Shown: one piece after another, positions 8,940-27,251 of the stretch
Position numbering within the stretch: position 1 is the stretch's first letter
How the letters are laid out: the number at the start of each line of letters is the position of its first letter
Translations under genes and position numbers: made by a program
Notes under the pieces: generated by a model
The model's database searches: none
What the model was told of the DNA's origin: nothing
Seen by the model: only the letters and a program-made list of their open reading frames with translations
Origin: an uncultured bacterium
Lineage (GTDB): Bacteria; Patescibacteriota; Gracilibacteria; UBA1369; PNNO01
Assembly (NCBI GenBank): GCA_963704705.1
Contig: OY969931.1
Location: 480,001 to 512,000 of the forward strand
Direction of reading: 5' to 3'
DNA length: 32,000 nucleotides

Positions 8940-9311
8940 ATGAAATATAGATATTCAGCACAAAGAGATAAAATTTTTAAAAAATTAAAGGCTTCTGGCA
9001 AGCATTTAACAGCTGAACAAATACATAAACTGGTTCCCGACATGGGGCTTGGTACTGTTTATAGAAATTTGGGTATTTTAGCGGACATGGGAAAAATAAT
9101 GAAATTCACTTTTGGTGATCGTTCTGTTTTTGAGGTCGATGAACAGCCGCATCATCATTTAGTGTGTAAAAAATGCGGGAAAATTACAAACGTTTATAAA
9201 CCTGCAAATTTTAAATGTGTTAATTGCTTGAGCTTTGTAAAGGATTTTAATGTAGATGAAGCTTATATTAACGCTTTTGGGTATTGCGCTAAATGTTCAA
9301 AAAAGAAGTAA
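8940..9311 (+). CDS. Fur-family metalloregulator (Fur/Zur/PerR class not resolvable)
   Basis: wHTH region LTAEQIHKLV...GLGTVYRNLGIL, then HHHLVCKKCGK and a C-terminal CAKC (paired CxxC structural zinc site). Confidence 0.8.
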   Translation: MKYRYSAQRDKIFKKLKASGKHLTAEQIHKLVPDMGLGTVYRNLGILADMGKIMKFTFGDRSVFEVDEQPHHHLVCKKCGKITNVYKPANFKCVNCLSFVKDFNVDEAYINAFGYCAKCSKKK

Positions 9312-9603
9312 GTTCATGTACTCTCTTCTGAGTCAGCAGTTTATCAGATGATTTTATTAAATCTCCGTCAAAACTTATTCCAAGATATTCATGAATATTA
9401 AATAGATCATCTTCATCAAGGCCCTGAAGCATGAGTCTTTGTTTTAATTCATTTATTATATCCGATAAATGATAAGCATTAAAAGCTGCCAATTGCACTG
9501 CATATTCATGCAATTCGTATTTGTTGTCGAGTTTAGCAATTGTTTCTTTTAAACTGGGGGATGGAGGTTCCGAGGACGGAGGCTGGTCATCAGTTGTATG
9601 CAT
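9289..9603 (-). CDS. Hypothetical protein (104 aa)
   Basis: ORF with its own TTGACA/TAAAAT promoter-like boxes upstream. No recognised motif. Convergent 23-nt overlap with the Fur-family gene. Confidence 0.45.
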   Translation of the reverse strand: MHTTDDQPPSSEPPSPSLKETIAKLDNKYELHEYAVQLAAFNAYHLSDIINELKQRLMLQGLDEDDLFNIHEYLGISFDGDLIKSSDKLLTQKRVHELTSFLNI

Positions 9604-9647
9604 ATATTTTTTTAGAAAAATTATTGCTATTAAAAATTATCATAGTT

Positions 9648-9675
9648 ATTTTAATATGTAAATATCTTTTGTCAA
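9648..9675 (-). promoter_or_regulatory. Sigma70-like promoter for the 104-aa gene
   Basis: On the minus strand: TTGACA (9675-9670), 16-nt spacer, TAAAAT (9653-9648). Confidence 0.4.
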
Positions 9676-9680
9676 ACAAT

Positions 9681-11333
9681 TTATATTACTATATTAAGAT
9701 AGCATTCCTCACAGAAGACTCTCTCTGGCAGTTCAGGTGAATAAGATGCCTTTATTTCCTTTCCGCAATTATCACATTTCCTGTCCCACAACTTCCTCGG
9801 ATTTCTAAGAATCATTCTCTCCAAATGTCTGCAGTCAGGGCATTTTCGTGGTACAGGAAGATCTAATTTCTTATAGAATGCAAGTTCTTTATCTATAATT
9901 TTGAAATTCTTTCCGCAATCATTACAGGCTAAAATTTCTCCAAGAATATCTTCTTTTACATCTTTAATATCTAAAGGAATTTTATATGTTTGTTTTTGAT
10001 AATCTTTCATGTCTTTTTCTTTCCATATATATCCATTTTTTAAACACGCGCTTTTATCCAATCTAAAATATTCCTGAGCAACTGTTTCATTATATGCAAA
10101 TGGCGAATATTTTATTGGAAAAAATTCTCCCCATTCTCCTGTTTTTTTCATATACTCAATTAGATTTGTGCGTAATTTTTCATATTCTTCTTTGGAATAT
10201 TGTTTGTTTAATATGCAATATTTCTTCTTATTGAGAGAAATACAACCGAATAAATTGCTGGAATTGTTAAAACATAAATTGCAGTAATTTATATCATTAT
10301 CATGCCAGCATGAATCACAGGCAATACAATTATTAATACCAGAACATCCGATTGTCTGATAACAAACTTCACTTTTATCATATCCCATACAATTCATATC
10401 CATTGAATCGTATGTTTCATCCATTTGATATCCGTAAGCTGAGTCTTCGCAGCCGGTACAATCAAAACAGGTGCGTAAATTTTTACAATTATTTAAATTA
10501 TTTCCTTCACAATTTTCACAATTAACTTTATAAACCGCTCTTACAGGAAATTTTTTTCTGAATTCGGTTTTGAAAATTTCAACTGCCTCTGAAAAATTCT
10601 TATAATTTCCAAAATTATATGATTCAAGTTGCTTAAAATAATCCTCTTTTGAATATTGTTTGTTAAAAATATAGTATTCTTTATGGCGGAGGTTAGAACA
10701 AAACAAACAATGCTTGCATCCCTTTAAATCAACAGAAAAATAGCATTCCTGACATCCTTCGCAGTGATCCAAATATACGCTTCTATATGAATTTCCTGAA
10801 AAAATGCATCCATAAGAAAGCTCACTTTCATAAAGCCATAAATAATCCATACAGTCTTTATTTTTTGTTGAATAATGACCGTACATGCAATCTTCTTCGT
10901 AGTGATTTCCAAAGGTTAAATAGCAATTTTTATTTGCAAAAGAATAATTACAATACTCACTGTTTTGAGATTGCTTATTAATAATTGCGAGCCTTGGAAC
11001 TTTTTGTAATAACTTATAAAACTGATCAAAAAAAGGTTCTTCAAAATTTACTTCATCGTTAAAATCGGTCGCATCCCAATCATCCTCCCAAAAGCACTCC
11101 TGACAATAAACAGGAAACGGCTTATCTTTCGAAAAAATTGAAATAATATTTTTTTTGCATTTATCACACTGCCTTTTATAAAGAACCCTTTCATTTCTGT
11201 AAGCGAGCCGTTTTTGCTGACGACAATCAGGGCATTCAAAAGGCTCCGGCAAATCGAGCTTTTGATAAAACTTCAGATCTTCATCTGTGAACTTGAATTG
11301 AGAATTACAGCTTATACAAGCTTTTATTTGCAT
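9681..11333 (-). CDS. Cysteine-rich protein with N- and C-terminal double zinc-ribbon modules, paralog A (550 aa)
   Basis: The N-terminal module CISCN..FYQKLDLPEPFECPDCR..RNERVLYKRQCDKCKK..VYCQECF is repeated at the C-terminus as CNDCGK..FYKKLDLPVPRKCPDCR..RNPRKLWDRKCDNCGK..VFCEECY. The centre holds Cys-containing short repeats. Conserved MKKTGEWGEFFP block. Confidence 0.85.
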   Translation of the reverse strand: MQIKACISCNSQFKFTDEDLKFYQKLDLPEPFECPDCRQQKRLAYRNERVLYKRQCDKCKKNIISIFSKDKPFPVYCQECFWEDDWDATDFNDEVNFEEPFFDQFYKLLQKVPRLAIINKQSQNSEYCNYSFANKNCYLTFGNHYEEDCMYGHYSTKNKDCMDYLWLYESELSYGCIFSGNSYRSVYLDHCEGCQECYFSVDLKGCKHCLFCSNLRHKEYYIFNKQYSKEDYFKQLESYNFGNYKNFSEAVEIFKTEFRKKFPVRAVYKVNCENCEGNNLNNCKNLRTCFDCTGCEDSAYGYQMDETYDSMDMNCMGYDKSEVCYQTIGCSGINNCIACDSCWHDNDINYCNLCFNNSSNLFGCISLNKKKYCILNKQYSKEEYEKLRTNLIEYMKKTGEWGEFFPIKYSPFAYNETVAQEYFRLDKSACLKNGYIWKEKDMKDYQKQTYKIPLDIKDVKEDILGEILACNDCGKNFKIIDKELAFYKKLDLPVPRKCPDCRHLERMILRNPRKLWDRKCDNCGKEIKASYSPELPERVFCEECYLNIVI

Positions 11334-11404
11334 TTAAATTTTAGATTTATTTAATAAATTTTTAATAATTAATTGGTGAAATCCAGCTGCTAGCCTCTCT
11401 TCGT

Positions 11405-11473
11405 GGGGGCAGTTGGACACTACGGGTCTTATCAAACTCAGTAGTAGGGGTTCGATTCCCCTTGCCTCCACCA
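11405..11473 (+). ncRNA. 69-nt tRNA-like / tmRNA tRNA-like-domain (TLD)-like element with encoded CCA
   Basis: Acceptor GGGGGCA/TGCCTCC with a G3:U70 pair. T arm AGGGG-TTCGATT-CCCCT (11446-11462). Discriminator A plus CCA. Only 34 nt lie between acceptor and T arm: no D stem, one bulged 9-bp helix, and an 8-nt loop. Confidence 0.55.
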
Positions 11474-11549
11474 GATGCTAGCATGTATAATTTAGTTGAT
11501 AAGACTCGTAGACCATCTGCAAAAGCTCTCAAATATTTGGGAGCTTTTC

Positions 11550-13187
11550 TTAAACTACTTCCTTTAAATAGCACTGTTCGCAATATACCTTTTCAGGCCG
11601 CTCTGGTAAATATGTTGTTTGAATTTCCGTTCCGCACTTATCACATTTTCTATCCCAGAGTTTTCGTGGATTTTTCCATGATTGCATTTCGAGTTGTCGG
11701 CAATCCGGGCATTTTTTTGATAATGGTGCATTAATTTTGCGATGCAGATTTAATTCCTGAGCCATTATTTTATAATTTTTACCGCAATCGGAACATGCTA
11801 ATAGTTCATTAACAATTGAGTCCGGAACTTCTTTAATTGTTACAGGAATTTTAAAGCTGGCCGGTTTGTATTCATGTGGATTTTTATCCTGCCATTTATA
11901 GCCTTTTGCCACTGCCTGCTCTTTAGTTAATGGATAGTAATCCTGTGCAGCCGAGTGATTGTAAGGGTAAAGTGATAATGACGTTGGGAAAAATTCGCCC
12001 CATTCTCCTGTTTTTTTCATGTGATCGATGATTTTGTCGCGCAGTTTTAAATATTCTTCCTTTGAATATTTTTTATTTAAAATGCAATATTTTTCTTTAT
12101 TATGCAGACCATCGCAACCAAAACAATCAGAAATACCCATTGAGATATAAATATAAGTACAATCAGGGCTAACAACAGGGCAAAAACTAAATTTTGTATT
12201 AACTGTTCTATCTCCACCTGTACTAATTTCATATGCAAGCTCAACTTTTTCATCATGATTGGTCAAATCCATTGAATCCGTTACGTTTACACAACCAACC
12301 ATATATTTTGAATCTTCAACACTGATACAATCGTAGCTTTCATGAACGTTATTACAGTTTTTAAGATAATTGCCTGATGAATTCTCGCAATTTATCAAAT
12401 TTTGATATCTTTTTGGAGTTGTTTGATTAAACTTTTTGAAATTTTTAGAAATAACTTCTTCATCGTAACTCATAATCTCTTCAACAATTTTTTCATATTC
12501 TTCTTTTGAATATTTTTGATTTTTATAATGATATTCCTTATTCGTTAGGCCGCTGCACATAAAACAATTTTTACACCCTATACAGTTCTCAAGATATGCT
12601 GAATCACTACAGCCCTTACAATTTATTAAATGATAAGAATTGTAACAATTTTGAGAATTTACACTGTAGTAAACAAGCTCACAGTCATCAAGAATAATTC
12701 CATCGCTGCAGTCCTTACATTTTTGGCTTTTAGTCAGATAATAAATATCTTCACTATAATAAGACCCTGCGCACATATACGCATTCTTACAATAAGCGAG
12801 TAATGTATTATATTCTGAATTTTCTGAATCATATACAAGAAGACATGCCTTAGGAACCTTCATCATAAGTTCATGGAATTGATCAAAAAATGGTCTGTTA
12901 AAATCAAAATCCTGACCATATTTCAAAGGATCCCAGCCATCTCTCCACCAACATTCATGGCAATATACGGGGAATTTTTCTTTTTCATTGAAAAATGAAA
13001 TTATATCTTTATTGCATTTGTCACATTTTCTTTTTGAAATATATCGTTCATTTCTAAAACTCAGTCTTCTCTGAAGCCTGCAGTCAGAACAAAAAGTGGG
13101 TTCCGGTACATTAATTTTAGTATAAAAAGCGCGATCTGAATCGGTTATTTCAAATTGTAATCCGCAGTTTTTACAAATTTTATTCAT
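11550..13187 (-). CDS. Cysteine-rich double zinc-ribbon protein, paralog B (545 aa)
   Basis: Same architecture as paralog A: CKNCG..FYTKINVPEPTFCSDCR at the N-terminus, CSDCGK..KCPDCR..CDKCG..VYCEQCY at the C-terminus, and MKKTGEWGEFFP. Confidence 0.85.
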   Translation of the reverse strand: MNKICKNCGLQFEITDSDRAFYTKINVPEPTFCSDCRLQRRLSFRNERYISKRKCDKCNKDIISFFNEKEKFPVYCHECWWRDGWDPLKYGQDFDFNRPFFDQFHELMMKVPKACLLVYDSENSEYNTLLAYCKNAYMCAGSYYSEDIYYLTKSQKCKDCSDGIILDDCELVYYSVNSQNCYNSYHLINCKGCSDSAYLENCIGCKNCFMCSGLTNKEYHYKNQKYSKEEYEKIVEEIMSYDEEVISKNFKKFNQTTPKRYQNLINCENSSGNYLKNCNNVHESYDCISVEDSKYMVGCVNVTDSMDLTNHDEKVELAYEISTGGDRTVNTKFSFCPVVSPDCTYIYISMGISDCFGCDGLHNKEKYCILNKKYSKEEYLKLRDKIIDHMKKTGEWGEFFPTSLSLYPYNHSAAQDYYPLTKEQAVAKGYKWQDKNPHEYKPASFKIPVTIKEVPDSIVNELLACSDCGKNYKIMAQELNLHRKINAPLSKKCPDCRQLEMQSWKNPRKLWDRKCDKCGTEIQTTYLPERPEKVYCEQCYLKEVV

Positions 13188-13212
13188 TATGAAGTTTGTT
13201 ATTCATGACAAG

Positions 13213-13241
13213 ACTTTATTAATGAAAGATTTTAGTGTCAA
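13213..13241 (-). promoter_or_regulatory. Sigma70-like promoter for paralog B
   Basis: On the minus strand: TTGACA (13241-13236), 17-nt spacer, TAAAGT (13218-13213), 25 nt upstream of the ATG at 13187. Confidence 0.35.
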
Positions 13242-13293
13242 ATTTGAATGTTTCACAAAGAATTTTATCTAAATAAAGCCAAATAAACAAATA

Positions 13294-14055
13294 TTAATTC
13301 TCAATCAATTGAGAAAATATATTAAATTGAGATCTTTGTATGTCAGCTATAATTTTGGATTTAACTAATACTGAACTAACATCATTTTCTTTAAAATGAT
13401 TGAATAAAATATAGTTTTCAGTATCCGAAAAAATGATAAAAGTGCCTTTAAAATTCAGGTTTAACTGATCAACCTGAGTTTTAAATTTTTTCTTAAAATC
13501 ATTGGTACAAAAGTAATCAGTATGTTTGCCGTGAGTTGTACAAATAGCATGATGTTTTGATTTTTTAATACGTAATTTTCTAAATTCGCGACCTACATCA
13601 AGTCCTCCAATTTTTGGGATGAAATTTTCAAAATCACCAAAATCCAGATTAGTTTCACCGCACCGTTGTGCAATAAAAAGGTATGGCTCAACAATTTGAT
13701 CAGGAGTATAAAAAGTTTCAATTTCCTCAACTGAATCAGCCGGACAATGTAAAAAAGGTGCGACATCCTTAATTCTACGTGCCAGTTTGCCTTTTTTCCT
13801 GCTGCTGTTTTGAAGCTGACTAACTAAAACTTTTAAAGACAATGCTTTGAAGCCTTCTTTAGCTGATTCAACCATCTTTAAATCCTCCAAACCTTCAAAA
13901 GCCCTGTAAACCGCATTCCTATCAAGGCCTGTTCTTTCAACAACTTCCCACTTTGTTTGTGCAGGATTTTTAAGAAGCTCAATATATACAAGAATTTCAG
14001 CTTCTTTTAAACCGGCTTGATTAAGTAAACTATTTAATTTTTTATATAAATTCAT
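13294..14055 (-). CDS. TrmB-like winged-helix transcriptional regulator (253 aa)
   Basis: N-terminal LKEAEILVYIELLKNPAQTKWEVVERTGLDRNAVYRAFEGLEDLKMVE fits a TrmB/MarR-type wHTH. Paralogous to the 15868-16638 product. Confidence 0.65.
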   Translation of the reverse strand: MNLYKKLNSLLNQAGLKEAEILVYIELLKNPAQTKWEVVERTGLDRNAVYRAFEGLEDLKMVESAKEGFKALSLKVLVSQLQNSSRKKGKLARRIKDVAPFLHCPADSVEEIETFYTPDQIVEPYLFIAQRCGETNLDFGDFENFIPKIGGLDVGREFRKLRIKKSKHHAICTTHGKHTDYFCTNDFKKKFKTQVDQLNLNFKGTFIIFSDTENYILFNHFKENDVSSVLVKSKIIADIQRSQFNIFSQLIEN

Positions 14056-14112
14056 TTAAAAATTAGACAGCAGGTGTATATCTAACCAGATTTTGCAAAT
14101 ATTGTCAACAAT

Positions 14113-15759
14113 TTAAGCAACCTCATTTAAATAGCACTGTTCGCAGTATACCTTTTCAGGCCTATCTGGTGAATATGTAGTTTTAACTTCAACTCCGCAC
14201 TTATCACATTTTCTGTCCCAAAGCCTAACCGGGTTGCGCAAATCGAGCCGCACTCTATGCCTGCATTCGCTGCATGTTGAAGGAGCCGGAATTCCCTGGC
14301 GCACATAAAAATTAAATTCAGGTCTGTTAATTTTGTAATTTCTGCCACAATCTTCGCATGCCAAAACTTTATCAATAATGCCTTCTTTCAAATCTTTAAC
14401 ATTGTCAGGCACAACCAAGTCTGATTTTTTATATTCTTTTGGATCTTTTTCTCTCCATCTGTAACCGTAAGTTAAGGCCTGCTCTTTTGTTAAAGGAAAA
14501 TATTGATGTGCTGTGCCCTCGTTATATGCAAAACAAGTTAATTCAGGCGGAAAGAACTTACCCCATTCTCCTGTTTTTTTCATGTGTTCAATGATTCGGC
14601 TGCGTAAAGCACGATATTCGTCTTGTTTATATTGCTTGTTTAAAATACAAAACTGTTTGTGTTTTAGTCCGTTGCATCCGAACACATCATTGCAACTTAT
14701 AATTTGTTCGCTATATTCTATATCATTACTGTCAAAAGCAAAGTATGTGAATTTTGATTTAACACATGTAAAAGTTGCAACCATGTTATAACAAACCTCA
14801 CTTTTATGGCCAAGATACGTTGAATTAAATAAATCGGTTGAATCAACTGAAAATAAAGTCTTTACAACATCCTCGCAATCATAAATGTCATAAGAATTTT
14901 TTACATTATTCGAATTATAAATATAATCTCCGGTCACATTTTCGTTGTTTACCCCATGATAATATTTCACCACACGCTTTTTTCTTAGCTCAACAAACAT
15001 TTTAAAAATCTCATTTATTCTTGCGCGGCTTCCATTTAGCATCTCCTTCTTTTGCGCAAAGTAGTCCTCTTTTGTAAGCTGTTTATTGCCGATGCAAAAT
15101 TCCTTTTTCGTAAGTCCCGTACATAAAATACATTCATTGCATCCGATACAATCACTTATAAAATAGCAGTTGGAACAGTTTTTGGAATCAAATGCATACT
15201 GGCATCCATAACTGTCATGTGAATATCCCATAAAATAACAAAGTTCGTTTTTATTGCTTATATCAATATCGAGTGAATCTTTATTGTGCATACATAAAGT
15301 ACTGTACTGAACATCTTCATTCATATCGCCTCCAAAAACCAAATAACAATTTTTATTTCCAACCGTCATATTACAATATTCGCTATTCTCTTGTTTTAGG
15401 TTTATTAAGGCCAGACGCGGAACCTCAAGCTGCAATTCTTTAAACTGTTCAAAAAATGGCCTGTTGAAGTCAAAATCGCGGCCGAATTCCATTGCATCCC
15501 ATTTGTCCGAATACCATGCTTTTGCGGAATAAACTTTATAAGGTGAATCCGGAGCGTAAATTGAAACAATGGGATCTCCGCTCGAATCACATTTGCGGTT
15601 ATATAAAACGCGTTCATTTCTAAATGCAAGACGCCCCATATGTGAACATTTAAAGCAAAGCTTTTCAGACGGAACCTGAAATTTTTCATATAATTTCAGT
15701 TCGTCTTCTTCGATAACTATATCCGCGCCGCATTGTAAGCATTTTGAATTCATACCCAA
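14113..15759 (-). CDS. Cysteine-rich double zinc-ribbon protein, paralog C (548 aa)
   Basis: Same architecture as A and B: CLQCG..LYEKFQVPSEKLCFKCS at the N-terminus, CEDCGR..CSECR..CDKCG..VYCEQCY at the C-terminus, and MKKTGEWGKFFP. Confidence 0.85.
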   Translation of the reverse strand: MGMNSKCLQCGADIVIEEDELKLYEKFQVPSEKLCFKCSHMGRLAFRNERVLYNRKCDSSGDPIVSIYAPDSPYKVYSAKAWYSDKWDAMEFGRDFDFNRPFFEQFKELQLEVPRLALINLKQENSEYCNMTVGNKNCYLVFGGDMNEDVQYSTLCMHNKDSLDIDISNKNELCYFMGYSHDSYGCQYAFDSKNCSNCYFISDCIGCNECILCTGLTKKEFCIGNKQLTKEDYFAQKKEMLNGSRARINEIFKMFVELRKKRVVKYYHGVNNENVTGDYIYNSNNVKNSYDIYDCEDVVKTLFSVDSTDLFNSTYLGHKSEVCYNMVATFTCVKSKFTYFAFDSNDIEYSEQIISCNDVFGCNGLKHKQFCILNKQYKQDEYRALRSRIIEHMKKTGEWGKFFPPELTCFAYNEGTAHQYFPLTKEQALTYGYRWREKDPKEYKKSDLVVPDNVKDLKEGIIDKVLACEDCGRNYKINRPEFNFYVRQGIPAPSTCSECRHRVRLDLRNPVRLWDRKCDKCGVEVKTTYSPDRPEKVYCEQCYLNEVA

Positions 15760-15867
15760 ATCTTATAATACTAAAAGTATTTTGCAAATTGCAAGTCACG
15801 GCAAATAAAAAATGGCTTTAAATAGTCAAAAAGCCAAATTAAATATTAACAAGCCCGCGTTAATATA

Positions 15868-16638
15868 TTAACTGTTCCAGTAGTGATTGAATTGATCCCG
15901 TTGAATTTTAAGTAATTCCGGCTGTCTTGTTATAACAACTTTTGGATCATCTTCATCGCAAATAAATAAGGTTGAACTGTCTTCGGTTATAACCATGAAA
16001 TTATCAGCAATAGGCTGTTTTGTGGTAAGTTTCATTGTTCTTTTCTCGAACGAATCACGTGATTTTAAAATATCGCCTAATTCATTGTACGGATTCATCA
16101 TTCTTACATAAATTCCACGTCGAAGTCTTTGTTGAATAAAATTACGTTCTTCGGGGCAATCAACACTCAAACCGCTTAAATTAAGAAAATTAATTACATT
16201 CCCCATTGGAAGCATTTCTTCTTTGCTCAGATTTGTTAGATTTAGATAAGCCTGTTTCATTGCATCAACACCGCATTTCACTTCAATCGGATCTTCCCGT
16301 TCTTTATCCGGATTTATAAATGATAAAAACGGATCCAGGTTTTTTAAGCCATTTTCAAGTTTTCTTAATTCTTTTTTATCATTTTGGATTTTTTTGACCA
16401 ATGATTTTAATGAAAGGGGTTTGAAAACAGATTCCTTGTTATTAATTGGAGCCGACTCAATGAGTCCTTTTTCTTTAAGATTTTTAAGAATTCTGTAAAT
16501 ATTTACAAAATGATATCCGCTAATTTCAGCTAACTTGTTAGCTGATGCCTGGCTTAATTTAAGCAGAATAAGATAGATTTTTATTTCTTCTTCTTTAAGT
16601 TCGGCCTTTTTTAATAGAGAAGTGAGTTTTTTTATCAT
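15868..16638 (-). CDS. TrmB-like winged-helix transcriptional regulator (256 aa)
   Basis: N-terminal LKEEEIKIYLILLKLSQASANKLAEISGYHFVNIYRILKNLKEKGLIE wHTH. The C-terminal end ...LLKIQRDQFNHYW parallels ...IADIQRSQFNIFS of the 13294-14055 product. Confidence 0.65.
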   Translation of the reverse strand: MIKKLTSLLKKAELKEEEIKIYLILLKLSQASANKLAEISGYHFVNIYRILKNLKEKGLIESAPINNKESVFKPLSLKSLVKKIQNDKKELRKLENGLKNLDPFLSFINPDKEREDPIEVKCGVDAMKQAYLNLTNLSKEEMLPMGNVINFLNLSGLSVDCPEERNFIQQRLRRGIYVRMMNPYNELGDILKSRDSFEKRTMKLTTKQPIADNFMVITEDSSTLFICDEDDPKVVITRQPELLKIQRDQFNHYWNS

Positions 16639-16659
16639 GCAAATCGATTATCAGGATGC

Positions 16660-16688
16660 ACAATACGACGGAAGCTTGTATTTGTCAA
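16660..16688 (-). promoter_or_regulatory. Candidate promoter for the TrmB-like gene
   Basis: On the minus strand: TTGACA (16688-16683), 17-nt spacer, TATTGT (16665-16660). Confidence 0.35.
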
Positions 16689-16701
16689 GAGTGGTCGTTG
16701 G

Positions 16702-16800
16702 TTAATCTTATGTTAAGATATTAACCGCTTGAATAAGATATTAAATGGTTGACAAGATATTATAAAAATGTTATAAATAAAGCATGAAATTAAGATATTT
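16702..16800 (+). repeat. Phased TAAGATATTAA direct repeats (candidate operator array)
   Basis: Identical 11-mers TAAGATATTAA at 16714-16724 and 16734-16744, exactly 20 bp apart. cAAGATATTAt at 16753-16763 abuts the -35 box. TAAGATATTt at 16791-16800 lies inside the first codons. An inverted partial copy TTAATCTTA is at 16702-16710. Confidence 0.6.
16749..16777 (+). promoter_or_regulatory. Sigma70-like promoter of the ATPase gene, probably giving a leaderless mRNA
   Basis: TTGACA (16749-16754), 17-nt spacer, TATAAA (16772-16777). The ATG at 16784 is only 6 nt downstream of the -10 box. Confidence 0.5.
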
Positions 16801-19015
16801 ACATATCATTGTGCCGCAGGGTGAAGAAGCTAATCCAAAAAAAGAACAGCTTTTTCAGCAATTTTTGAATAACCTCTACAGATCAACACAAAACAGACCT
16901 ATAGGTCTTGAAATATTTGGATATAAACAATATGCATATTTTTATATGGTTGTTCCAAATGATTTATATGCGCTTGTTGAAGGACTTGTTTACAGTTCTT
17001 ATCCGGGCTGCGAAATTAAAGAGAGTAAAGATTATTGCTCCTTTGCAATTAATAAAGGTTTAAAATTTGTAGGAACCAAGATTAAACTTAAACGAAGTGA
17101 TATTTATCCTATTTTAAATTTTGATGATTTTGAAGGGGATAGTTTATCTGGACTTTTTTCCGTTATTTCTAAAATTCAGCAGGATGAGCAGATTTGGATT
17201 CAGATACTTACCTCTCCTAAACCTGACAATTGGACATATCACATGGCTCGCAGATTCAGGATGTTTACGAACAAAATTAATCGTGTTTTTAGATTAAAAA
17301 ATTATATGCGCTTAAAAGGAAGAAAAGAATTTTTTACTGAAGAAAAAAACGCATTTATCCATAAAACCGAATCACATCCTTTTAAATTTGAAATTAGAAT
17401 TGCATGTTTTGCAGAAGACCGTAATAAAGCAGCTGGGAGGCTTGAAGCTGTTGCAAAGGCTTTCTATCAATTTAATAAAATTGATTTTAATGAGTTTACA
17501 ACAACTAGAAATACCAGTAGCAAGATTTTTTTAGAAAATTATATTAAGAGAAATTTAACCGATTCCCAGCTTATTAGTGCCAAGGAACTATCTACGCTAT
17601 ATCATTTCCCAAATGCTGATCATGTGCCGCATGTTGTACATGTTCTTTCAAAAAAAGCTGAAGCACCGCAGGATGTTCCTAAAAAAAGAGGCAAGGATGT
17701 AAGCTTTTTTGGTGTAACCAATTATCATAATAATTTTGATGAATTTGGTATAAGCCGTGAAGATCGCCGAAGACATTTGTATGTGGTAGGGAAGAGTGGT
17801 ACAGGAAAAAGTAAACTTCTTGAGTTATTTATTAGTGAAGATATTAAAAATGGTGAAGGTGTAGCGGTTTTGGATCCGCATGGTGATCTTGTTGATAATG
17901 TTGTAAGAATGATCCCAGAGCATCGAAAGAATGATGTTATTTATTTTGATCCGGGTGATACTGAATTCCCGGTTGCGTTTAACCCCCTTGTTAAAGTTGA
18001 TGAGACTCAAAAAATGCAAATGACTGTTGGTTTTATAAATATTTTTAAAAAATTATTCGGAAGCAACTGGAGCGACAGGCTTGAACATGTTTTACGTTAC
18101 ACAACTTTGGCGCTTTTGGATTCTCCAAATACAACAGTGCTTTCGATTCTAAAAATGCTTTCGGATAAAAATTATCGTCAAACAATCACAGCACGAATTA
18201 AAGACTCGGTTGTTAAAAATTTTTGGGTTAATGAATTTGCGGGTTGGAGCGAAAAATTTGATGCTGAAGCAATTACACCTTTATTAAATAAAGTAGGGCA
18301 GTTTGTTGCAACAAATATGATTCGAAATATTATTGGTCAGCCGGATAACAAGTTTGATATCAGAAAAGTAATGGATGAGAAAAAAATTCTGCTTATGAAA
18401 GTGTCTAAAGGGCTTTTAGGTGAGGAAAATTCAAATTTACTCGGGGCAATGATTGTAACCAAGATTTATCAGGCAGCAATGAGTAGAGCTGATACCCCTG
18501 AAGAACAACGTGAAGATTTCTATTTGTATGTTGATGAGTTCCAGAATTTTGCAACAGACACTTTTGAAGAAATTCTTTCCGAAGCACGAAAATACAAATT
18601 AAATTTAACCATTGCACACCAATTTGTTGGTCAACTTTCACCTACAATGATCAAAACCGTATTTGGTAATGTTGGCTCAATGCTCAGCTTTAGGGTAGGT
18701 GCAGAAGACGCACAGGTTCTTGAAAATGAATACACTCCTGTATTCAAAGTTCGGGATATTATTAATCTCGCGGTTCGTGATTTTTATATAAAGATGTCAG
18801 TTAACGGTGAAGTCCGCAAGCCATTCAGCGGTCGAACTCTAGATGTAGTTAAACCGCCCGAAGATTTCACCGAAGAAATTATTGCGAATTCACGCTCTAA
18901 TTACGCAACGCCTGTTAGCCGAGTTGAATCAATGCTTGAAAAATGGGATGAATCAGGCGAATTCGACCTTAAACCAGGGGAGGCAAATGAAGAGTTTGAG
19001 GAACCTTTAATTTAA
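16784..19015 (+). CDS. VirD4/TraD-like (type IV coupling protein-like) P-loop ATPase with an uncharacterised ~330-aa N-terminal region
   Basis: Walker A VVGKSGTGKSKLL, then VLDPHGDL, Walker B FYLYVDEFQNF, and KYKLNLTIAHQFVGQL. These are typical of TraD/TrwB/VirD4-type coupling ATPases. The N-terminal third has no recognised motif. Confidence 0.7.
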   Translation: MKLRYLHIIVPQGEEANPKKEQLFQQFLNNLYRSTQNRPIGLEIFGYKQYAYFYMVVPNDLYALVEGLVYSSYPGCEIKESKDYCSFAINKGLKFVGTKIKLKRSDIYPILNFDDFEGDSLSGLFSVISKIQQDEQIWIQILTSPKPDNWTYHMARRFRMFTNKINRVFRLKNYMRLKGRKEFFTEEKNAFIHKTESHPFKFEIRIACFAEDRNKAAGRLEAVAKAFYQFNKIDFNEFTTTRNTSSKIFLENYIKRNLTDSQLISAKELSTLYHFPNADHVPHVVHVLSKKAEAPQDVPKKRGKDVSFFGVTNYHNNFDEFGISREDRRRHLYVVGKSGTGKSKLLELFISEDIKNGEGVAVLDPHGDLVDNVVRMIPEHRKNDVIYFDPGDTEFPVAFNPLVKVDETQKMQMTVGFINIFKKLFGSNWSDRLEHVLRYTTLALLDSPNTTVLSILKMLSDKNYRQTITARIKDSVVKNFWVNEFAGWSEKFDAEAITPLLNKVGQFVATNMIRNIIGQPDNKFDIRKVMDEKKILLMKVSKGLLGEENSNLLGAMIVTKIYQAAMSRADTPEEQREDFYLYVDEFQNFATDTFEEILSEARKYKLNLTIAHQFVGQLSPTMIKTVFGNVGSMLSFRVGAEDAQVLENEYTPVFKVRDIINLAVRDFYIKMSVNGEVRKPFSGRTLDVVKPPEDFTEEIIANSRSNYATPVSRVESMLEKWDESGEFDLKPGEANEEFEEPLI

Positions 19016-19169: not shown

Positions 19170-19553
19170 ATGAAAAAAATCATATATCTTGTCGGCAACC
19201 TATTAGTTGAAGAAGACTCCCTTCCAATCAAGCTCAAACCCGAACTCGAAAAGCAATTTCCACAGTTCATCTTTCGTGAATATGACCCAACCGAAGATCT
19301 GCCGCAGGATACCGAAGATCTTATTATTATCGATACGGTTGAAGGTCTGAAAGAACCGCACATTTTCACCGACATCGATGCATTTGCATCGCAAAAAGCT
19401 TATTCAATGCATGATTTTGATCTTGGATGGAGCCTTAAGCTATACAAAAAACTAAGAATGTTTAAGACCCTCAAAATAATAGGGATGCCATCAAACAGAG
19501 AGATTAATGAAATTTTCAATAAACTTAAAGATTTGCTAAAAACAAATATTTAA
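19170..19553 (+). CDS. [NiFe]-hydrogenase maturation endopeptidase (HycI/HybD-like)
   Basis: N-terminal VGNLLVEEDSLP (family GNxLxxDDGxG with an acidic ligand), IIIDTV (Asp ligand) and SMHDF (His ligand). Small size (127 aa). Lies beside the hydrogenase genes. Confidence 0.65.
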   Translation: MKKIIYLVGNLLVEEDSLPIKLKPELEKQFPQFIFREYDPTEDLPQDTEDLIIIDTVEGLKEPHIFTDIDAFASQKAYSMHDFDLGWSLKLYKKLRMFKTLKIIGMPSNREINEIFNKLKDLLKTNI

Positions 19554-20463: not shown

Positions 20464-20937
20464 TTAAATTTTACCCTCAAGGATAGAAGTATAATCTTTA
20501 AAACCGTGGCGCTTGTAGAAGCGTAGAGCGTGCTTGTTATTTGTGAAAAGTTCAACCTTCATTCGTTTAGCGCCGCGCTCTTTTAGCCATTTTTTGAATT
20601 CTTTGATTAGTTTTGTACCGATTTTAAGATTTCGATATCCATCAATAACAAACATATCGCCGAGCTGGCCAAGTTTATCAAGGGTTCTAAAGGCAGGGCT
20701 TTTAAAAAACCCGCCGCTTAAATATCCAACTGGTTCGCCGTCAACTTCCGCAATAATTGCAAAATTACTGCGTTCACTTACACGCATTTTAAAATAATCA
20801 GCGCATTTTTTACTTTTTGCCCATGTGATTTTATTTGTTGGATCAAAATTTTCATATTCCTCTTTCATCAAAAGATACATAAACTTTTGCATCAACTTAA
20901 TATCCTCTTGTTTTGCTTTACGAATTTTTACTTCCAT
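20464..20937 (-). CDS. GNAT-family N-acetyltransferase
   Basis: 157 aa. The block MFVIDGYRNLKIGTKLI...ALRFYKRHGF fits the GNAT acetyl-CoA-binding motif region. Overlaps the hydrogenase large subunit 3' end by 20 nt. Confidence 0.75.
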   Translation of the reverse strand: MEVKIRKAKQEDIKLMQKFMYLLMKEEYENFDPTNKITWAKSKKCADYFKMRVSERSNFAIIAEVDGEPVGYLSGGFFKSPAFRTLDKLGQLGDMFVIDGYRNLKIGTKLIKEFKKWLKERGAKRMKVELFTNNKHALRFYKRHGFKDYTSILEGKI

Positions 20938-22240
20938 TAAAGTGCCAGTTTAGTTTCAAAAAGTGAGTTGCGCAGCTCATACATGGGTCGTATGCGCGAA
21001 TTAGTTTTTCAATTTCGAATCTAACATGATCTTTATCTAAATTCTCACCGTCTTTATCCAAATATGATTGAACGAGATGTCTGATATCATTTGAAATATT
21101 GATTTGATTTTGCGCTGTTGGCACAACAACTTCAGCACCCTGGACAATTCCTGCATCATCCAATTTAACATAATGATATAAAGTACCGCGCGGAGCTTCA
21201 ACTACACCAACTCCTTCACCTGCTTTAAGCGGAAGTTTTTCTTTTGCAGGCTGATCAAGTTTAAGATTTTCAAGAATTTCAATAGAATGGTCTATTGAAT
21301 GTAAAATTTCAATGGCCTGAGCCAGATTATTATGATAAACATCATTTGAAGGAAAGCGTGCTAAATATTTTGCTGCGTCTTTTTTTGTTTTTTCATGAAG
21401 AGCATCGCGATTAACATTCATTCTTGCTAATGCGCCAACCATATATTCATTGCCCTGCAAAGTGTAACCGAGGGCAGTTGAATATGGGATTACAACTTCT
21501 TTTAACTGGTTTCTGAAATGTTCTTCGGGCACACAAAAACCGCCTTCGCTGCATAAAGCAGGTCCTTCCAAAAAACTGAAATCATCAGTTTTTAAGCCAA
21601 CAAATCGCGTTTCGCGTTTTAAACTGAATTCACAATTATCAAATATTTCCATTGCCAAGAATATTTTATCGCGAACTCCTTTTAATTCTTCAATAACTTT
21701 GGCAATTTCTTCTGTTGTTGGCAGTTTTACAAAACCGCCCGGCATTGGAAATGGTGCATGAACAGCACGTCCTCCAATCATTGTAGATAAATTGTTACCG
21801 GCTCTTTTTAAATCAAACATATCATGTAAAAGCTGGCTTTCTTTTTCATCATGTTCATCAAAATCCAATATAGAATCTTTACCTATTACATCAGGTAAAG
21901 CGAAAACATATAAATGAAGTGCATGATCACGAATCATTAAACCGTATGTAAGAAGCTTTCTAAGAGTTGTAGTTTGTTCTGATGGTTTGAACCCCAGAGC
22001 ATCTTCAACAGCTTCAATAGCAGCTAGCAAATGTGCGATACTGCATGTTCCGCAAATTCGCGAAAGTAGCTGTGGCACTTGCAAAAAAGGTTTACCTAAA
22101 ATTGCTTTTTCAAAAAATCTCTTATTTTCCATTATCATAAATTTCACGTCCTGAATTTTGCCGTCTTCAATTACAACATCCATATCAAGATGACCTTCGA
22201 TTTTTGATAAACCGTCGATGTTTATATTAATTTGATGCAT
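20918..22240 (-). CDS. [NiFe]-hydrogenase large (catalytic) subunit, group 3/4-like size (440 aa)
   Basis: N-terminal KIEGH and RICGTCSIAH (RxCGxCxxxH). C-terminal DPCMSCATH (DPCxxCxxH) followed by a 14-aa tail FLKLNWHFNGSKNS, consistent with endopeptidase processing. Confidence 0.85.
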   Translation of the reverse strand: MHQININIDGLSKIEGHLDMDVVIEDGKIQDVKFMIMENKRFFEKAILGKPFLQVPQLLSRICGTCSIAHLLAAIEAVEDALGFKPSEQTTTLRKLLTYGLMIRDHALHLYVFALPDVIGKDSILDFDEHDEKESQLLHDMFDLKRAGNNLSTMIGGRAVHAPFPMPGGFVKLPTTEEIAKVIEELKGVRDKIFLAMEIFDNCEFSLKRETRFVGLKTDDFSFLEGPALCSEGGFCVPEEHFRNQLKEVVIPYSTALGYTLQGNEYMVGALARMNVNRDALHEKTKKDAAKYLARFPSNDVYHNNLAQAIEILHSIDHSIEILENLKLDQPAKEKLPLKAGEGVGVVEAPRGTLYHYVKLDDAGIVQGAEVVVPTAQNQINISNDIRHLVQSYLDKDGENLDKDHVRFEIEKLIRAYDPCMSCATHFLKLNWHFNGSKNS

Positions 22241-22754
22241 TTTTGTGGTTAACTATTGAGTCGTCTTCAGGAATCACTCCGAATTCATGAAGATATTTAT
22301 CCATGGCTTTTACAAATTCGGTTTCAATCATCGGGCATCCCGGTACTTTATCATCAACCTGTACAATTTCGTGCAATGCCAATACTTTTTTGCTTTGATG
22401 AAATTGTAAAAGATAAGGAGCGATTTCTTCTTTCATTTCTTCACTGAAATTGTTTCGGTGGCCTGTTGGAAGCCCTGTAACAGCACATGATCCTATTGCA
22501 ACAATATATTTAGAATTCTCGCGGATTTTTTTAAGTTTTTCAGTATCGCGGTCTGAACAAATTGCGCCTTCAACAAATGCAACGTCAATATCGCTAAGCT
22601 CATTTTTGCTTTTTAAAACATTGCAATGTCTGAATTCCAGAATTTTCTTCCATGCCAACAGATGATCATTGAGCATCTCAGTGAACATAATTGTTGAATC
22701 TTCACAGCAAGTGAATGAAAACCAGCCGATTTTGAGTTTTTTTTGTTCAGACAT
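22227..22754 (-). CDS. [NiFe]-hydrogenase small subunit, minimal NuoB-like (proximal cluster only)
   Basis: Cys ligands FTCCEDS, AIGSCAVTG and VPGCP. About 175 aa from the ATG at 22754, which I prefer over the track's GTG at 22796 that overlaps hydG. No medial or distal cluster region. Confidence 0.75.
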   Translation of the reverse strand: MSEQKKLKIGWFSFTCCEDSTIMFTEMLNDHLLAWKKILEFRHCNVLKSKNELSDIDVAFVEGAICSDRDTEKLKKIRENSKYIVAIGSCAVTGLPTGHRNNFSEEMKEEIAPYLLQFHQSKKVLALHEIVQVDDKVPGCPMIETEFVKAMDKYLHEFGVIPEDDSIVNHKNASN

Positions 22755-22779
22755 CAAATCATATTTTACATAAAAATAT

Positions 22780-24141
22780 TTAAAAGTACAGATCACGCTG
22801 GCCCTCTTCTATAAATTTAAGACGTTCGATTGTTTTTTTGCGAACACTTTCAGAAGGTATTTGATCTACATATTTTTCAATGATTTTTAATCCTTTTGTC
22901 TTGGTGCGATCTTCCGCATAATCTTCCAAATATTCTTTTAAAGTTAAAATCGCATTTGGCCTGCAAAAATTATGTATTTCACCTGGCTTAGCAATATCCA
23001 TAAAATCCTGACCGGTTCTTCCCAATCTATAACAAGCAGTACAAAAACTTGGGAGCAAGCCTTTATCCATAATATCTTCAATGACTTCATCGACTGTGCG
23101 CTCATCTGAAGTTGTAAACTGATTGAGTTCAGGGTTTTTTCCATATCCCCCTGGAGAAGTACGCGAAGCAGCTGAACTTTGAGAAATGCCTATTTCAAAA
23201 GCTTTCTGCCTTATTTCGGGCCTTTCTCTTGTTGAAATAATCATGCCGGTATATGGAACCGCCATTCTTAAAATAGCTATAATTTTCAGAAGTTCTTCTT
23301 CACTTACAGCATGCGGCCATTTGTCTTTAACTGTTGGCGCAGGCTGAAGCCGCGGAACAGAAAAAGTATGAGGTCCAACGCCATAAGTTTTATCCAAATA
23401 AAAAGCATGAGAAAGCAAAGCGAGTGTGTCATATTTCCAGTCATACAAGCCATAAAGAACACCTAAGCCAATATCATCAATTCCGCCTTTAAATGCTTCG
23501 TCGTGAGCATTGAGTTGTCTTTCGTAATCACCCTTAAGGCCTTTGTGAAGTTTTTTGTAAGTCGGTCTGTGATAAGTTTCCTGAAATAATTGATAAGTTC
23601 CGATTCCAATTTCTTTTAATTTTGCGTAATTTTCAGCTGTTGTTGCAGCAATATTTACATTTACCCTTCGTATTTCGCCTTTGCCCTCCTTAACTGAATA
23701 AATTGTTTTGATTGTATCAACAACATAATCAATAGGGTTATTGATGGGATCTTCACCAAATTCAAGGAGCAAACGTTTATGTCCCATTCTAATTAGCAAT
23801 CTTGTTTGTTCTTCAACTTCTTCGAGTGTAAGTTTTTTTCTTTTACACTTATTCCTTGCATGAAATCCGCAATATTCACAGTCATTTACACAAAAATTTG
23901 AAATATAAAGTGGGGCAAAAAGCACCAGTCGCTCGCCATAAATCTCTTTTTTGATATACCAAGCTGTTTCAAACATTCTCGCTTCGTGTTTTTTATCTGC
24001 ATTCATTAACATCGCGGCTTCTTTAAGCCCGATTCCCTTCATTTTTTTTGCTTTATTTAGAATGATTTCAACCTGTTCATCAGTTGGATTTTGCGTTTCT
24101 TCGAGTATTTTTTCTATGATTTCGTGATCGAATTGTTTCAT
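22780..24141 (-). CDS. hydG: [FeFe]-hydrogenase maturase HydG (radical SAM tyrosine lyase)
   Basis: Radical SAM motif ISNFCVNDCEYCGF. C-terminal auxiliary-cluster motif CTAC followed by exactly 22 residues to the next C (CxxCx22C). 453 aa. Confidence 0.85.
   Translation of the reverse strand: MKQFDHEIIEKILEETQNPTDEQVEIILNKAKKMKGIGLKEAAMLMNADKKHEARMFETAWYIKKEIYGERLVLFAPLYISNFCVNDCEYCGFHARNKCKRKKLTLEEVEEQTRLLIRMGHKRLLLEFGEDPINNPIDYVVDTIKTIYSVKEGKGEIRRVNVNIAATTAENYAKLKEIGIGTYQLFQETYHRPTYKKLHKGLKGDYERQLNAHDEAFKGGIDDIGLGVLYGLYDWKYDTLALLSHAFYLDKTYGVGPHTFSVPRLQPAPTVKDKWPHAVSEEELLKIIAILRMAVPYTGMIISTRERPEIRQKAFEIGISQSSAASRTSPGGYGKNPELNQFTTSDERTVDEVIEDIMDKGLLPSFCTACYRLGRTGQDFMDIAKPGEIHNFCRPNAILTLKEYLEDYAEDRTKTKGLKIIEKYVDQIPSESVRKKTIERLKFIEEGQRDLYF

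Positions 24142-27175: not shown

Positions 27176-27251
<76 letters not shown>

Follow-up and report, generated by a model that had tools for sequence, protein, structure and literature searches.

Arrays of cysteine-rich zinc-ribbon proteins linked by gene order to TrmB-like regulators and a soluble VirD4-like ATPase in Patescibacteria

A 32,000-nucleotide stretch of an uncultured Gracilibacteria genome (contig OY969931.1 of assembly GCA_963704705.1, forward-strand positions 480,001 to 512,000; hereafter the window, its first letter being position 1) carries three paralogous genes for cysteine-rich zinc-ribbon proteins of about 550 residues. These proteins, here called Z and individually A, B and C, are accompanied by two TrmB-like regulators (family T; R1 and R2 in the window) and by a soluble VirD4-like ATPase (V), and the same families recur together in other patescibacterial genomes. 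The arrays appear to be new as a system, its function being read from gene order and sequence evolution alone. We tentatively favor, while stopping short of calling it probable, the reading that Z proteins are paralog-specific adaptors that would couple ligands to a soluble VirD4-like hexamer through shared modules, with the T proteins as paralog-specific switches. The genes at issue are as follows.

9681-11333, minus strand: Z paralog A, 550 aa, 44 cysteines, the most canonical Z member; PF13451 at 28.9 bits against a cut-off of 24
11550-13187, minus strand: Z paralog B, 545 aa, 38 cysteines, 45% identical to A
14113-15759, minus strand: Z paralog C, 548 aa from TTG 15759, likelier 546 aa from ATG 15753; 32 cysteines
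13294-14055, minus strand: R1, TrmB/TrmBL2-like winged helix-turn-helix (wHTH) regulator, 253 aa, PF01978 at E 2.6e-10; directly upstream of B
15868-16638, minus strand: R2, TrmB/TrmBL2-like wHTH regulator, 256 aa, PF01978 at E 1.3e-12; directly upstream of C and divergent from V
16784-19015, plus strand: V, soluble P-loop ATPase resembling VirD4/TrwB, 743 aa; N-domain DUF8128; Pfam/NCBIfam matches

The open reading frames (ORFs) of the window were listed and their products scanned against Pfam, NCBIfam, PDB sequences and PADLOC-DB 2.0. A first-pass annotation, made from the letters alone, had described three same-strand, cysteine-rich paralogs of one architecture, two TrmB-like regulators and a VirD4-like coupling-protein ATPase next door, and these descriptions stand: A, B and C all lie on the minus strand and are collinear over their full length (A and C are 42% identical in pairwise alignment), with zinc-finger matches at both termini, the regulators match PF01978, and V matches the T4SS-DNA_transf and TrwB models. 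The exact 548-aa product of C is absent from a 15-billion-protein collection in which the products of A, B, R1, R2 and V are all present; because of this absence, and because the ATG at 15753 gives an N-terminus (MNSKC...) that aligns better with those of A and B, the true start is probably at 15753 rather than at 15759. Three of the four cysteines of C's second N-terminal finger are gone.

The Z family is large. A homology search returned more than 7,400 matches, the top 120 of which are full-length and 45%–100% identical; all 120 are labelled either "hypothetical" or "zinc-ribbon domain containing", and they come from metagenome-assembled genomes (MAGs) of Peregrinibacteria, Peribacteria, Gracilibacteria and the "Patescibacteria group". 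When 1.84 billion cluster representatives were searched exhaustively with a profile, 2,358 Z clusters (50% identity) passed E ≤ 1e-30 and 5,659 passed E ≤ 1e-3, with lengths of 540–600 aa in nearly all. GTDB species representatives hold at least 590 confirmed matches, and the best 79 of these loci, which formed the sample for our neighborhood survey, also take in Abawacabacteria, Paceibacterota, Nomurabacteria, Liptonbacteria and Harrisonbacteria. A second query, taken from a Paceibacteria-type array, added a further deep orthogroup (64%–74% identity), and a search aimed at members in cultured Saccharibacteria matched only Nomurabacteria/Paceibacteria MAGs. A few Z records are labelled Oligoflexia or Pseudomonadota; all are MAGs, and mis-binning is a possible explanation. 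Judging from the named sources, the family is almost confined to Patescibacteria (candidate phyla radiation, CPR). Z is essentially absent from 2.9 million viral contigs, with a single partial match at a contig end, and we therefore rejected its reading as a phage family.

The first-pass annotation could assign Z to no characterized function, and this holds: Pfam, NCBIfam, PDB, Foldseek, PADLOC and the literature are all empty for the core. The core (approximately residues 95–465) has no match in Pfam (59 members scanned), NCBIfam or PDB sequence searches, and PDB sequence searches with full-length A, a terminal-module profile and a cap/connector profile gave either no match or generic C2H2/LIM noise. 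No paper on the family was found in the searchable literature. Some members carry the label "Zn ribbon nucleic-acid-binding protein" from JGI. Two rare composite forms were seen: a 731-aa protein (P0238) in which a complete Z protein is fused behind an N-terminal GNAT acetyltransferase domain, and an 808-aa Z protein (P0206) extended at its C-terminus by 250 aa without a Pfam match.

Gene organization of the arrays

ORFs were called in the 79 loci (955 ORFs) and labelled by iterated hidden Markov models built from the window proteins. This yielded 266 Z ORFs. Co-directional arrays of two to at least ten Z genes are the norm, copy number varies from one to at least ten between genomes, and the most frequent layout is T(-) Z Z ... 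Z V(+). Genes are closely packed: the median gap is 15 bp between neighboring Z genes (n = 143), 46 bp at both Z-V (n = 25) and V-Z (n = 18) junctions, and 111 bp where T and Z diverge (n = 24). The first-pass annotation had suggested a survey of this kind, and linkage to the TrmB-like regulators is seen in 29 of the 79 loci and to the VirD4-like ATPase in 22. The latter rate (28%), a lower bound as many loci end at contig ends, can be set against a rough expectation: 5,713 VirD4-like genes have been counted in 2,918 patescibacterial genomes (PMC12102498, 2025), and at ~2 per genome a window of 16–20 genes would hold one a few percent of the time. The linkage is reciprocal. In 80 metagenome loci picked by similarity to V, Z is present in 34, and in 27 of the 38 where V is at least 50% identical; the loci of this latter group that lack Z are mostly contigs of under 6 kb. 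Two further V homologs, on contigs of ~1 Mb (L165 and L166), lie in the order TrmB(-), Z, Z, V(+); in L165 there is an 8-bp overlap between the two Z genes, and V begins 1 bp past the second.

V itself has the features of a type IV coupling protein (T4CP). It matches PF02534 (T4SS-DNA_transf, E 1.1e-10), PF10412 (TrwB_AAD_bind, E 3.8e-6) and TraG-D_C in Pfam, as well as the TrwB structure 1e9r (E 1.6e-4 in the PDB search), and it combines a P-loop nucleotide-binding domain carrying Walker A (GKSGTGKS) and Walker B (YVDEFQ) motifs with an all-alpha domain, the combination that serves as the T4CP criterion. In 18 homologs GKSGxGKS and DEFQ do not vary. DUF8128 (PF26449, precomputed for this exact protein) occupies the N-terminal ~300 aa. 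A passage of PMC7431656 attributes an N-terminal transmembrane anchor to most T4CPs. V lacks one: its highest 19-residue Kyte-Doolittle window is 1.06 and none exceeds 1.6, while a DoxX-like control has 94 such windows. No Pfam match to a type IV secretion system (T4SS) channel component (VirB4, VirB6 and so on) or to a relaxase was found in the scanned ORFs of the window or in L080, L165 and L166.

The first-pass annotation had seen an accessory system rather than housekeeping, which now looks doubtful: GC content across the array (0.30–0.37) equals that of the flanks, a similar chromosomal neighborhood recurs in several ~1-Mb genomes, and the family is absent from viral contigs. The clusters of the L165/L166 type are flanked by NTP-transferase/LbH, PurP-like DUF1246/1297, BacA, AICARFT, MutL and LysM-M23 genes, several of them shared with the locus (L082) that holds an ortholog of A. 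Because such housekeeping neighbors are similar in several ~1-Mb genomes, we read the T-Z-V cluster as vertically inherited chromosome and not a mobile island.

Beyond T and V, the only other neighbor families recurring in the 79 loci are MazF/PemK-like (six loci) and ORF6N-like (four loci). These small genes sit between or beside Z genes (MazF/PemK-like, for instance, at L054 13797-14135 and L015 4937-5488), which suggests that the arrays tolerate or attract small selfish modules. Two other arrangements of VirD4-like genes were noted. A distant subfamily, 35%–42% identical to V, consists of tandem genes of ~830 aa and ~900–1,100 aa followed by a conserved minus-strand block, with no Z (L095, L099, L102, L104, L106, L110, L112 and L134), and provides a second context for patescibacterial T4CP homologs. 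Five loci (L131, L149, L152, L154 and L159) have a conserved same-strand order V(~710 aa)-Z-(Z)-V(~510 aa).

Architecture, cysteines and divergence of the Z proteins

An AlphaFold2 model of paralog A built with 148 diverse representatives reaches a mean predicted local distance difference test score (pLDDT) of 92 and a predicted template-modeling score of 0.92; with a 59-sequence alignment pLDDT was 80, and 55–69 in two middle blocks. The model and HHalign comparisons give a pseudo-symmetric order of zinc ribbons, solenoid, solenoid, connector and zinc ribbons. In A these are a double zinc-ribbon (1–95), solenoid 1 with its cap (~118–240), solenoid 2 with its cap (~266–398), the connector (~399–465) and a second double zinc-ribbon (466–550). 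The two middle blocks (~118–225 and ~268–378) are made of very short strands that repeat every ~9–13 residues, and each is capped by a hairpin and helix with a near-invariant motif, CILNKQYSKEEY. The connector is strongly conserved (motif GEWGEFFP...YNET.A..Y). The N- and C-terminal zinc-ribbon modules are homologous to each other (HHalign E 5e-31), as are the two solenoid-plus-cap units (E 1e-36). The first zinc-ribbon modules are basic (family median net charges +3 and +5) and contain an invariant arginine-rich helix (R42, R46, N47; RNER/RNPR); the solenoids are acidic (-6 and -7), and the whole protein has an isoelectric point (pI) of ~6.2.

Pfam matches to zf_Tbcl and zf_Tbcl_2 in A, B and C fall at both termini, with none between. 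PF13451 scores are 17.4 bits for B and 19.4 for C, and PF23477 scores are 21.7, 24.3 and 21.7 bits for A, B and C against a gathering cut-off of 27; among the 59 Z members, PF13451 matches 41 and PF23477 matches 24 at E ≤ 0.1. A hydropathy scan found no hydrophobic or transmembrane segment and no signal peptide, for which there is no room since Cys6 already belongs to the first finger. The Z proteins are cytoplasmic, and the surface role that the first-pass annotation had floated is unlikely.

The cysteines are of two kinds. Those at 6/9/34/37, 56/59/77/80, 470/473/498/501 and 520/523/541/544 form CxxC...CxxC sites and, in 416 aligned Z proteins, are lost all-or-none (phi 0.98–0.99 for 59/77/80, 0.99 for 473/501 and 0.87 for 9/37); these four terminal sites thus behave like true tetrahedral metal sites. 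The solenoids hold more than 40 further cysteine-bearing columns in the same alignment. In solenoid 1 all cysteines share one phase modulo 3, with an autocorrelation of 0.5–0.7 at every multiple of 3 and, among longer lags, a peak at 12. The solenoid columns are nearly independent (phi ≤ 0.33, the best pairs at i, i+12), their cysteines are swapped in paralogs for Ser, Ala, Val, Ile or Asn, for instance, and the total per protein ranges from 24 to 52. We infer that the solenoid cysteines line the narrow core of a beta-helix of ~12 residues per coil and are not discrete metal clusters or obligatory disulfides. Such a cysteine-lined narrow helix, predicted in a cytoplasmic protein, would be a structural curiosity.

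The first-pass annotation had called the cassette triplicated; a local triplication could not be upheld. A best match in another genome is found for 89% of 200 Z proteins, with a median identity of 57% there compared to 44% within the same array, and we rejected a recent local triplication on this ground. Single-linkage clustering yields dozens of subfamilies, mostly with one member per locus. The paralogs are ancient. The nearest relative (L080) has orthologs of A (81%), B (76%) and C (75%) among at least seven Z copies in the order Z T C' V(-) B' Z Z A'; further orthologs are found for A in L082 (64%) and for B in L074 (59%). That each regulator and its Z gene form a conserved cassette, as first proposed from the window, is seen for R2 and C in L080 (T 52.5% identical, upstream of Z at 75%) and for R1 and B in L074 (T 47%, upstream of Z at 59%); T-Z pairs are inherited together. 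Rates differ among the families: compared with L080, V is 86% identical, Z 75%–81% and T 52%.

Between orthologs the solenoids are the best-conserved domains (solenoid 1 87%–92%, solenoid 2 62%–88%, zinc-ribbon modules 67%–75%), whereas between paralogs they are the least conserved (25%–41%, compared to 35%–69% for the zinc-ribbon modules and cap 2). Because of this reversal, we regard the solenoids as paralog-specific surfaces under purifying selection. The pattern is the signature of a repertoire of distinct, stable specificities carried on common docking modules. Arms-race diversification and relaxed constraint were both rejected, the solenoids being the best-conserved domains of orthologs.

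Regulatory sites and surroundings of the window

The remaining features of the array and its edges are the following.

15859-15872: palindrome GTTAATATATTAAC, perfect; it overlaps R2's stop codon, lies 100 bp upstream of C and is a candidate operator
16712-16725: second palindrome copy GTTAATATCTTAAC, near-identical, in the divergent V/R2 promoter region
16734-16744: half-site TTAATATCTTA, beside the second palindrome copy in the V/R2 promoter region
8940-9311, plus strand: Fur-family gene (Pfam), 123 aa, 370 bp from A's stop
11405-11473, plus strand: tRNA-like element, 69 nt, between A and B on the strand opposite to the Z genes
11519-11549: hairpin AAAAGCUCUCAAAUAUUUGGGAGCUUUU with a U-run behind it, immediately past B's stop codon and 45 nt beyond the tRNA-like element, with a structure line in the Phe_leader alignment; likely a bidirectional terminator

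R1 and R2 are 29% identical (E 2e-21) and both have the N-terminal TrmB wHTH domain (PF01978 at 40.4 and 47.8 bits, cut-off 25.6), with no C-terminal sugar-binding domain of the TrmB_C type in the Pfam scan. Their scores against the NCBIfam TrmB, TrmBL1 and TrmBL2 models are 14–22 bits, compared to equivalog cut-offs of 530–650, and R2 weakly matches TrmBL2 (PDB 5box) over residues 10–191. The palindrome GTTAATAT[A/C]TTAAC occurs at only two sites in the 32 kb. Allowing at most one mismatch, GTTAATATNTTAAC has four strand-wise matches, all at these two sites, where 0.19 are expected and none of 100 shuffles reaches four. In the V/R2 region, positions 16688-16660 of the minus strand form a promoter-like TTGACA-17-TATTGT; promoter-like hexamers also precede R2, C, B and A, their total being no higher than in shuffles. 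R2 may thus autoregulate and control V and C through the predicted palindrome operator, and R1, since it is only 29% identical to R2, presumably recognizes a different site upstream of B. The palindrome has no exact match in other Z loci, as would fit the fast evolution of T, and L080 has a different, AATATT-centered palindrome at the equivalent position at the T stop.

The first-pass annotation was correct in placing a Fur-family gene beyond A; as a conserved neighbor of Z it was rejected, having no match at E < 1e-5 among the 955 ORFs of the 79 loci. A Fur-family gene beside an A-type paralog was seen only here, where the two are convergent, and in the relative L082/L083, where it is divergent (9479-9901) and accompanied by desulfoferrodoxin/rubredoxin; in L080 it is not adjacent. 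Between Fur and A, an ORF of 104 aa (9289-9603, minus strand) overlaps the 3' end of Fur by 23 nt. It is preceded by TTGACA-16-TAAAAT at 9675-9648, the best promoter-like match on its strand in the scanned region 9200–17000, and has no Pfam or PADLOC match and no homolog in the 79 loci.

A tRNA-like element near A had also been reported from the letters. A 69-nt tRNA-like structure is indeed present (GGGGGCAGUUGGACACUACGGGUCUUAUCAAACUCAGUAGUAGGGGUUCGAUUCCCCUUGCCUCCACCA), but it is not called as a tRNA by ARAGORN or Rfam at gathering thresholds, the sole call in the window being tRNA-Met at 27176. The acceptor stem is 7 bp long and includes a G3:U70 wobble, the T-arm is canonical and the CCA is encoded; a D-stem is missing, and a 9-bp stem with an 8-nt loop stands where an anticodon arm is expected. 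Its fold is -45.3 kcal/mol (z -2.9), a promoter-like site precedes it at 11340-11369 on the plus strand, and sub-threshold Rfam scores are 25 bits for mascRNA (cut-off 42.5), 14.7 for tmRNA and 19 for permuted tmRNA (cut-off 47). The element resembles a small RNA gene of the tRNA-like or tmRNA-TLD-like kind, or else a degenerate tRNA, and we do not count it as part of the Z system; tRNAs as a recurrent array feature were rejected, as they do not recur in arrays elsewhere. In one other locus (L065 6839-6910, minus strand), inside a T/Z cluster, ARAGORN calls a 72-nt "tRNA-Ser(cga)" with its anticodon at 31, too short for a class II tRNA and possibly another tRNA-like fragment near an array.

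The rest of the window is ordinary chromosome, with NiFe-hydrogenase subunits, radical-SAM maturases, a ferredoxin, a DHH phosphoesterase and acetolactate-synthase-like genes. A minus-strand block at 20918-25410 encodes the large and small subunits of a NiFe-hydrogenase (20918-22796) and, after them, two radical-SAM+BATS (HydE/HydG-like) proteins; in that of 24142-25410 the radical-SAM part is joined to an N-terminal HupF/HypC domain, an unusual fusion. The window also has a HycI-like protease ORF at 19170-19553 and a GNAT gene at 20464-20937.

Possible functions and comparison with known systems

In the adaptor reading that we favor, the shared Z modules (zinc ribbons, cap and connector) would dock to a common partner, either V itself or nucleic acid, and each paralog's own solenoid surface would recognize a different ligand or cargo. 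V would supply ATP-driven translocation or remodeling, and each T would switch the adjacent Z (and V) on or off via operators such as the GTTAATATNTTAAC palindromes flanking R2. We count in its support the arrays and their tight gaps, the solenoid specificity pattern, the ancient paralogy, the co-inheritance of T and Z, the palindrome confined to the surroundings of R2, and an intact, conserved V. The literature on orphan patescibacterial T4CPs fits as well, in that exaptation of VirD4 for another function "cannot be ruled out" (PMC12102498). Several observations weigh on the other side. The link between Z and V is one of gene order only; many Z genes, single-copy ones included, have no V within 8–10 kb (for example in L002, L040 and L047); and V in the window is divergently transcribed, outside the Z operon. 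The solenoids are without a known ligand and the zinc-ribbon modules without a solved homolog, their binding of nucleic acid or protein being deduced from charge and fold class alone.

A wider claim, which we consider doubtful, is that Z arrays and the DUF8128-VirD4 ATPase make up an unrecognized, phylum-wide ATP-driven machine, an exapted, membrane-free coupling-protein hexamer served by one to more than ten adaptors, each with its own TrmBL2-like switch. If true, this would explain the thousands of "orphan" T4CP genes in CPR genomes, and the Z arrays could be the cargo-selection layer of the epibiotic lifestyle. Patescibacteria/CPR account for a large share of bacterial diversity and have genomes of ~1 Mb, in which a conserved multi-copy family is costly; some genomes devote at least ten genes (>15 kb) to Z. 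The survey gives a first genomic context to orphan coupling-protein ATPases whose role was left open (PMC12102498), and the Z-V linkage makes that role testable, through binding of Z by the hexamer and the targets of the solenoids.

Z could itself be the cargo, that is, an effector whose terminal modules the VirD4-like ATPase would recognize and which would reach the host cell by way of the patescibacterial T4SS, although we think this unlikely. The operonic linkage to a T4CP homolog is tight, and conserved termini with paralog-specific middles resemble effector families that share a coupling-protein recognition domain, such as the X-Tfe proteins of Xanthomonas with their XVIPCD. Patescibacterial T4SSs lack relaxases and are thought to be repurposed (PMC12102498), which would also suit export. 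Yet the window has no T4SS channel genes, only 148 of the 5,713 patescibacterial T4CPs lie near virB4, and the T4CP is reported to be non-essential for epibiotic growth of Southlakia, where other T4SS genes are essential (PMC12102498). V has no membrane anchor, moreover, and selection on the solenoids is strongly purifying rather than a host-driven diversification.

That Z proteins are autonomous nucleic-acid binders strikes us as less likely still. They would act as DNA or RNA bridging or ruler proteins or as DNA-mimic regulators, and the linkage to V would reflect shared regulation or DNA handling. A rigid spacer that bears basic zinc-ribbon modules, with their invariant arginine-rich helix, at its two ends would suit such a role, as would the acidic beta-helices, which recall pentapeptide-repeat proteins, some of which mimic DNA; many single-copy Z loci lack V, and the JGI label points the same way. 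However, the whole protein is mildly acidic, no solved nucleic-acid-binding zinc module is matched beyond generic C2H2/LIM-like noise, and the overlapping Z-Z and abutting Z-V junctions argue for co-assembly.

We see little chance that the array is an anti-phage or anti-mobile-element defense island with Z as sensors, V as a HerA/FtsK-type motor or effector platform and T as regulators. V's best PADLOC matches are mad8 (E 5e-11) and HerA models, MazF/PemK-like and ORF6N-like genes occur within some arrays, and Z copy number varies widely between genomes. Against this, Z has no PADLOC match except a sub-threshold Cas12f zinc-finger fragment (E 3e-4), system partner genes are lacking, and no nuclease, protease or other effector domain is found in Pfam. 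The paralogs are ancient, with conserved orthologs and variable surfaces under purifying selection; the site is syntenic and chromosomal, with normal GC; and up to about 15 kb of a 1-Mb genome is given to the family in many lineages.

Self-assembling structural polymers analogous to bactofilins, with V as an assembly or remodeling ATPase, are an improbable identity for Z: the double solenoid is rigid with pseudo-symmetric ends, length is uniform over thousands of members, and multi-paralog operons would be typical of filament systems, but neither Pfam nor Foldseek finds similarity to bactofilin or any polymer-forming family, head-to-tail interfaces leave no sign, and one T regulator per paralog is unusual for structural subunits. 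Zinc or Fe-S storage or buffering, possibly under Fur/Zur control and akin to the metal handling that the first-pass annotation had considered, is very improbable, for all the 32–44 cysteines of A, B and C and the Fur-family gene found next door both here and in L082/L083, in the vicinity of ferredoxin, desulfoferrodoxin or thioredoxin genes, as it loses most of its basis once the solenoid cysteines look like core lining: only the four terminal sites co-vary as metal sites do, the solenoid positions being nearly independent and replaceable, Fur has no match in the 79 loci, and the strong ortholog conservation of non-cysteine surface residues is unexpected in a metal sponge.

The recognizable pieces of the system (zinc ribbon, T4CP-like ATPase, TrmB wHTH) are all of known classes. 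The terminal modules match zf_Tbcl (PF13451) and zf_Tbcl_2 (PF23477), described as "probable treble clef"; these models cover only ~170 of the 550 residues, most matches are under gathering cut-offs, and the two families are themselves functionally uncharacterized. Small phage "zinc-ribbon domain" proteins superpose locally on the Z modules in Foldseek searches of BFVD (root-mean-square deviation (rmsd) 0.4–0.7 Å over 38–43 residues, probability 0.97–1.0). R1 and R2 resemble archaeal-type TrmBL2/TrmB regulators in their N-terminal wHTH, their length of ~255 aa and a weak full-length match to TrmBL2 structures; unlike TrmB, they have no detected sugar-binding C-domain, and they evolve fast (52% identity where V has 86%).

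For the solenoids, Foldseek with the pLDDT-80 model found zinc fingers only, and its top PDB matches for the pLDDT-92 model are left-handed beta-helix proteins at non-significant levels (E 0.05–2, template-modeling score <0.11, rmsd 13–20 Å). Z shares the general beta-solenoid class with the hexapeptide-repeat left-handed beta-helices of LpxA, LpxD, GlmU and gamma-carbonic anhydrase. These have a 6/18 periodicity and 18-residue coils, in contrast to 3/12 and ~12-residue coils in Z, and no Hexapep Pfam match was found in the 59 members; membership in that group is not supported (best Foldseek E 0.05, template-modeling score ≤0.11, periodicity 3/12). Another likeness, by its repeat TCTxSxxCxxAx, may be the Tenebrio molitor antifreeze protein, a narrow, cysteine-lined beta-helix of 12 residues per coil. 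Z solenoid cysteines likewise stand strictly at every third residue with a lag-12 peak, and strands in the AlphaFold2 model start every ~9–13 residues. Unlike that protein, Z does not have the i/i+6 co-variation expected of obligatory disulfides, and its solenoids are acidic and flanked by zinc ribbons.

The Z protein as a whole, its cysteine-lined double solenoid and the Z-array/DUF8128-VirD4/TrmBL2 cassette have no described counterpart in Pfam, NCBIfam, PADLOC, PDB or the searchable literature. The nearest parallel for the cassette is found in T4CP (VirD4/TrwB) systems with adaptors or effectors, such as Legionella DotL with DotM/DotN/IcmSW and Xanthomonas VirD4 with XVIPCD effectors. Unlike these, V has DUF8128 in place of a transmembrane domain, with no T4SS channel genes or relaxase nearby, and Z is unrelated to any known adaptor or effector family. 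What V has in common with them is a nucleotide-binding domain with intact Walker motifs, an all-alpha domain and a place beside a family with conserved docking-type modules and variable specificity domains, and the Z system may in the end be classed as an exotic coupling-protein/adaptor system.

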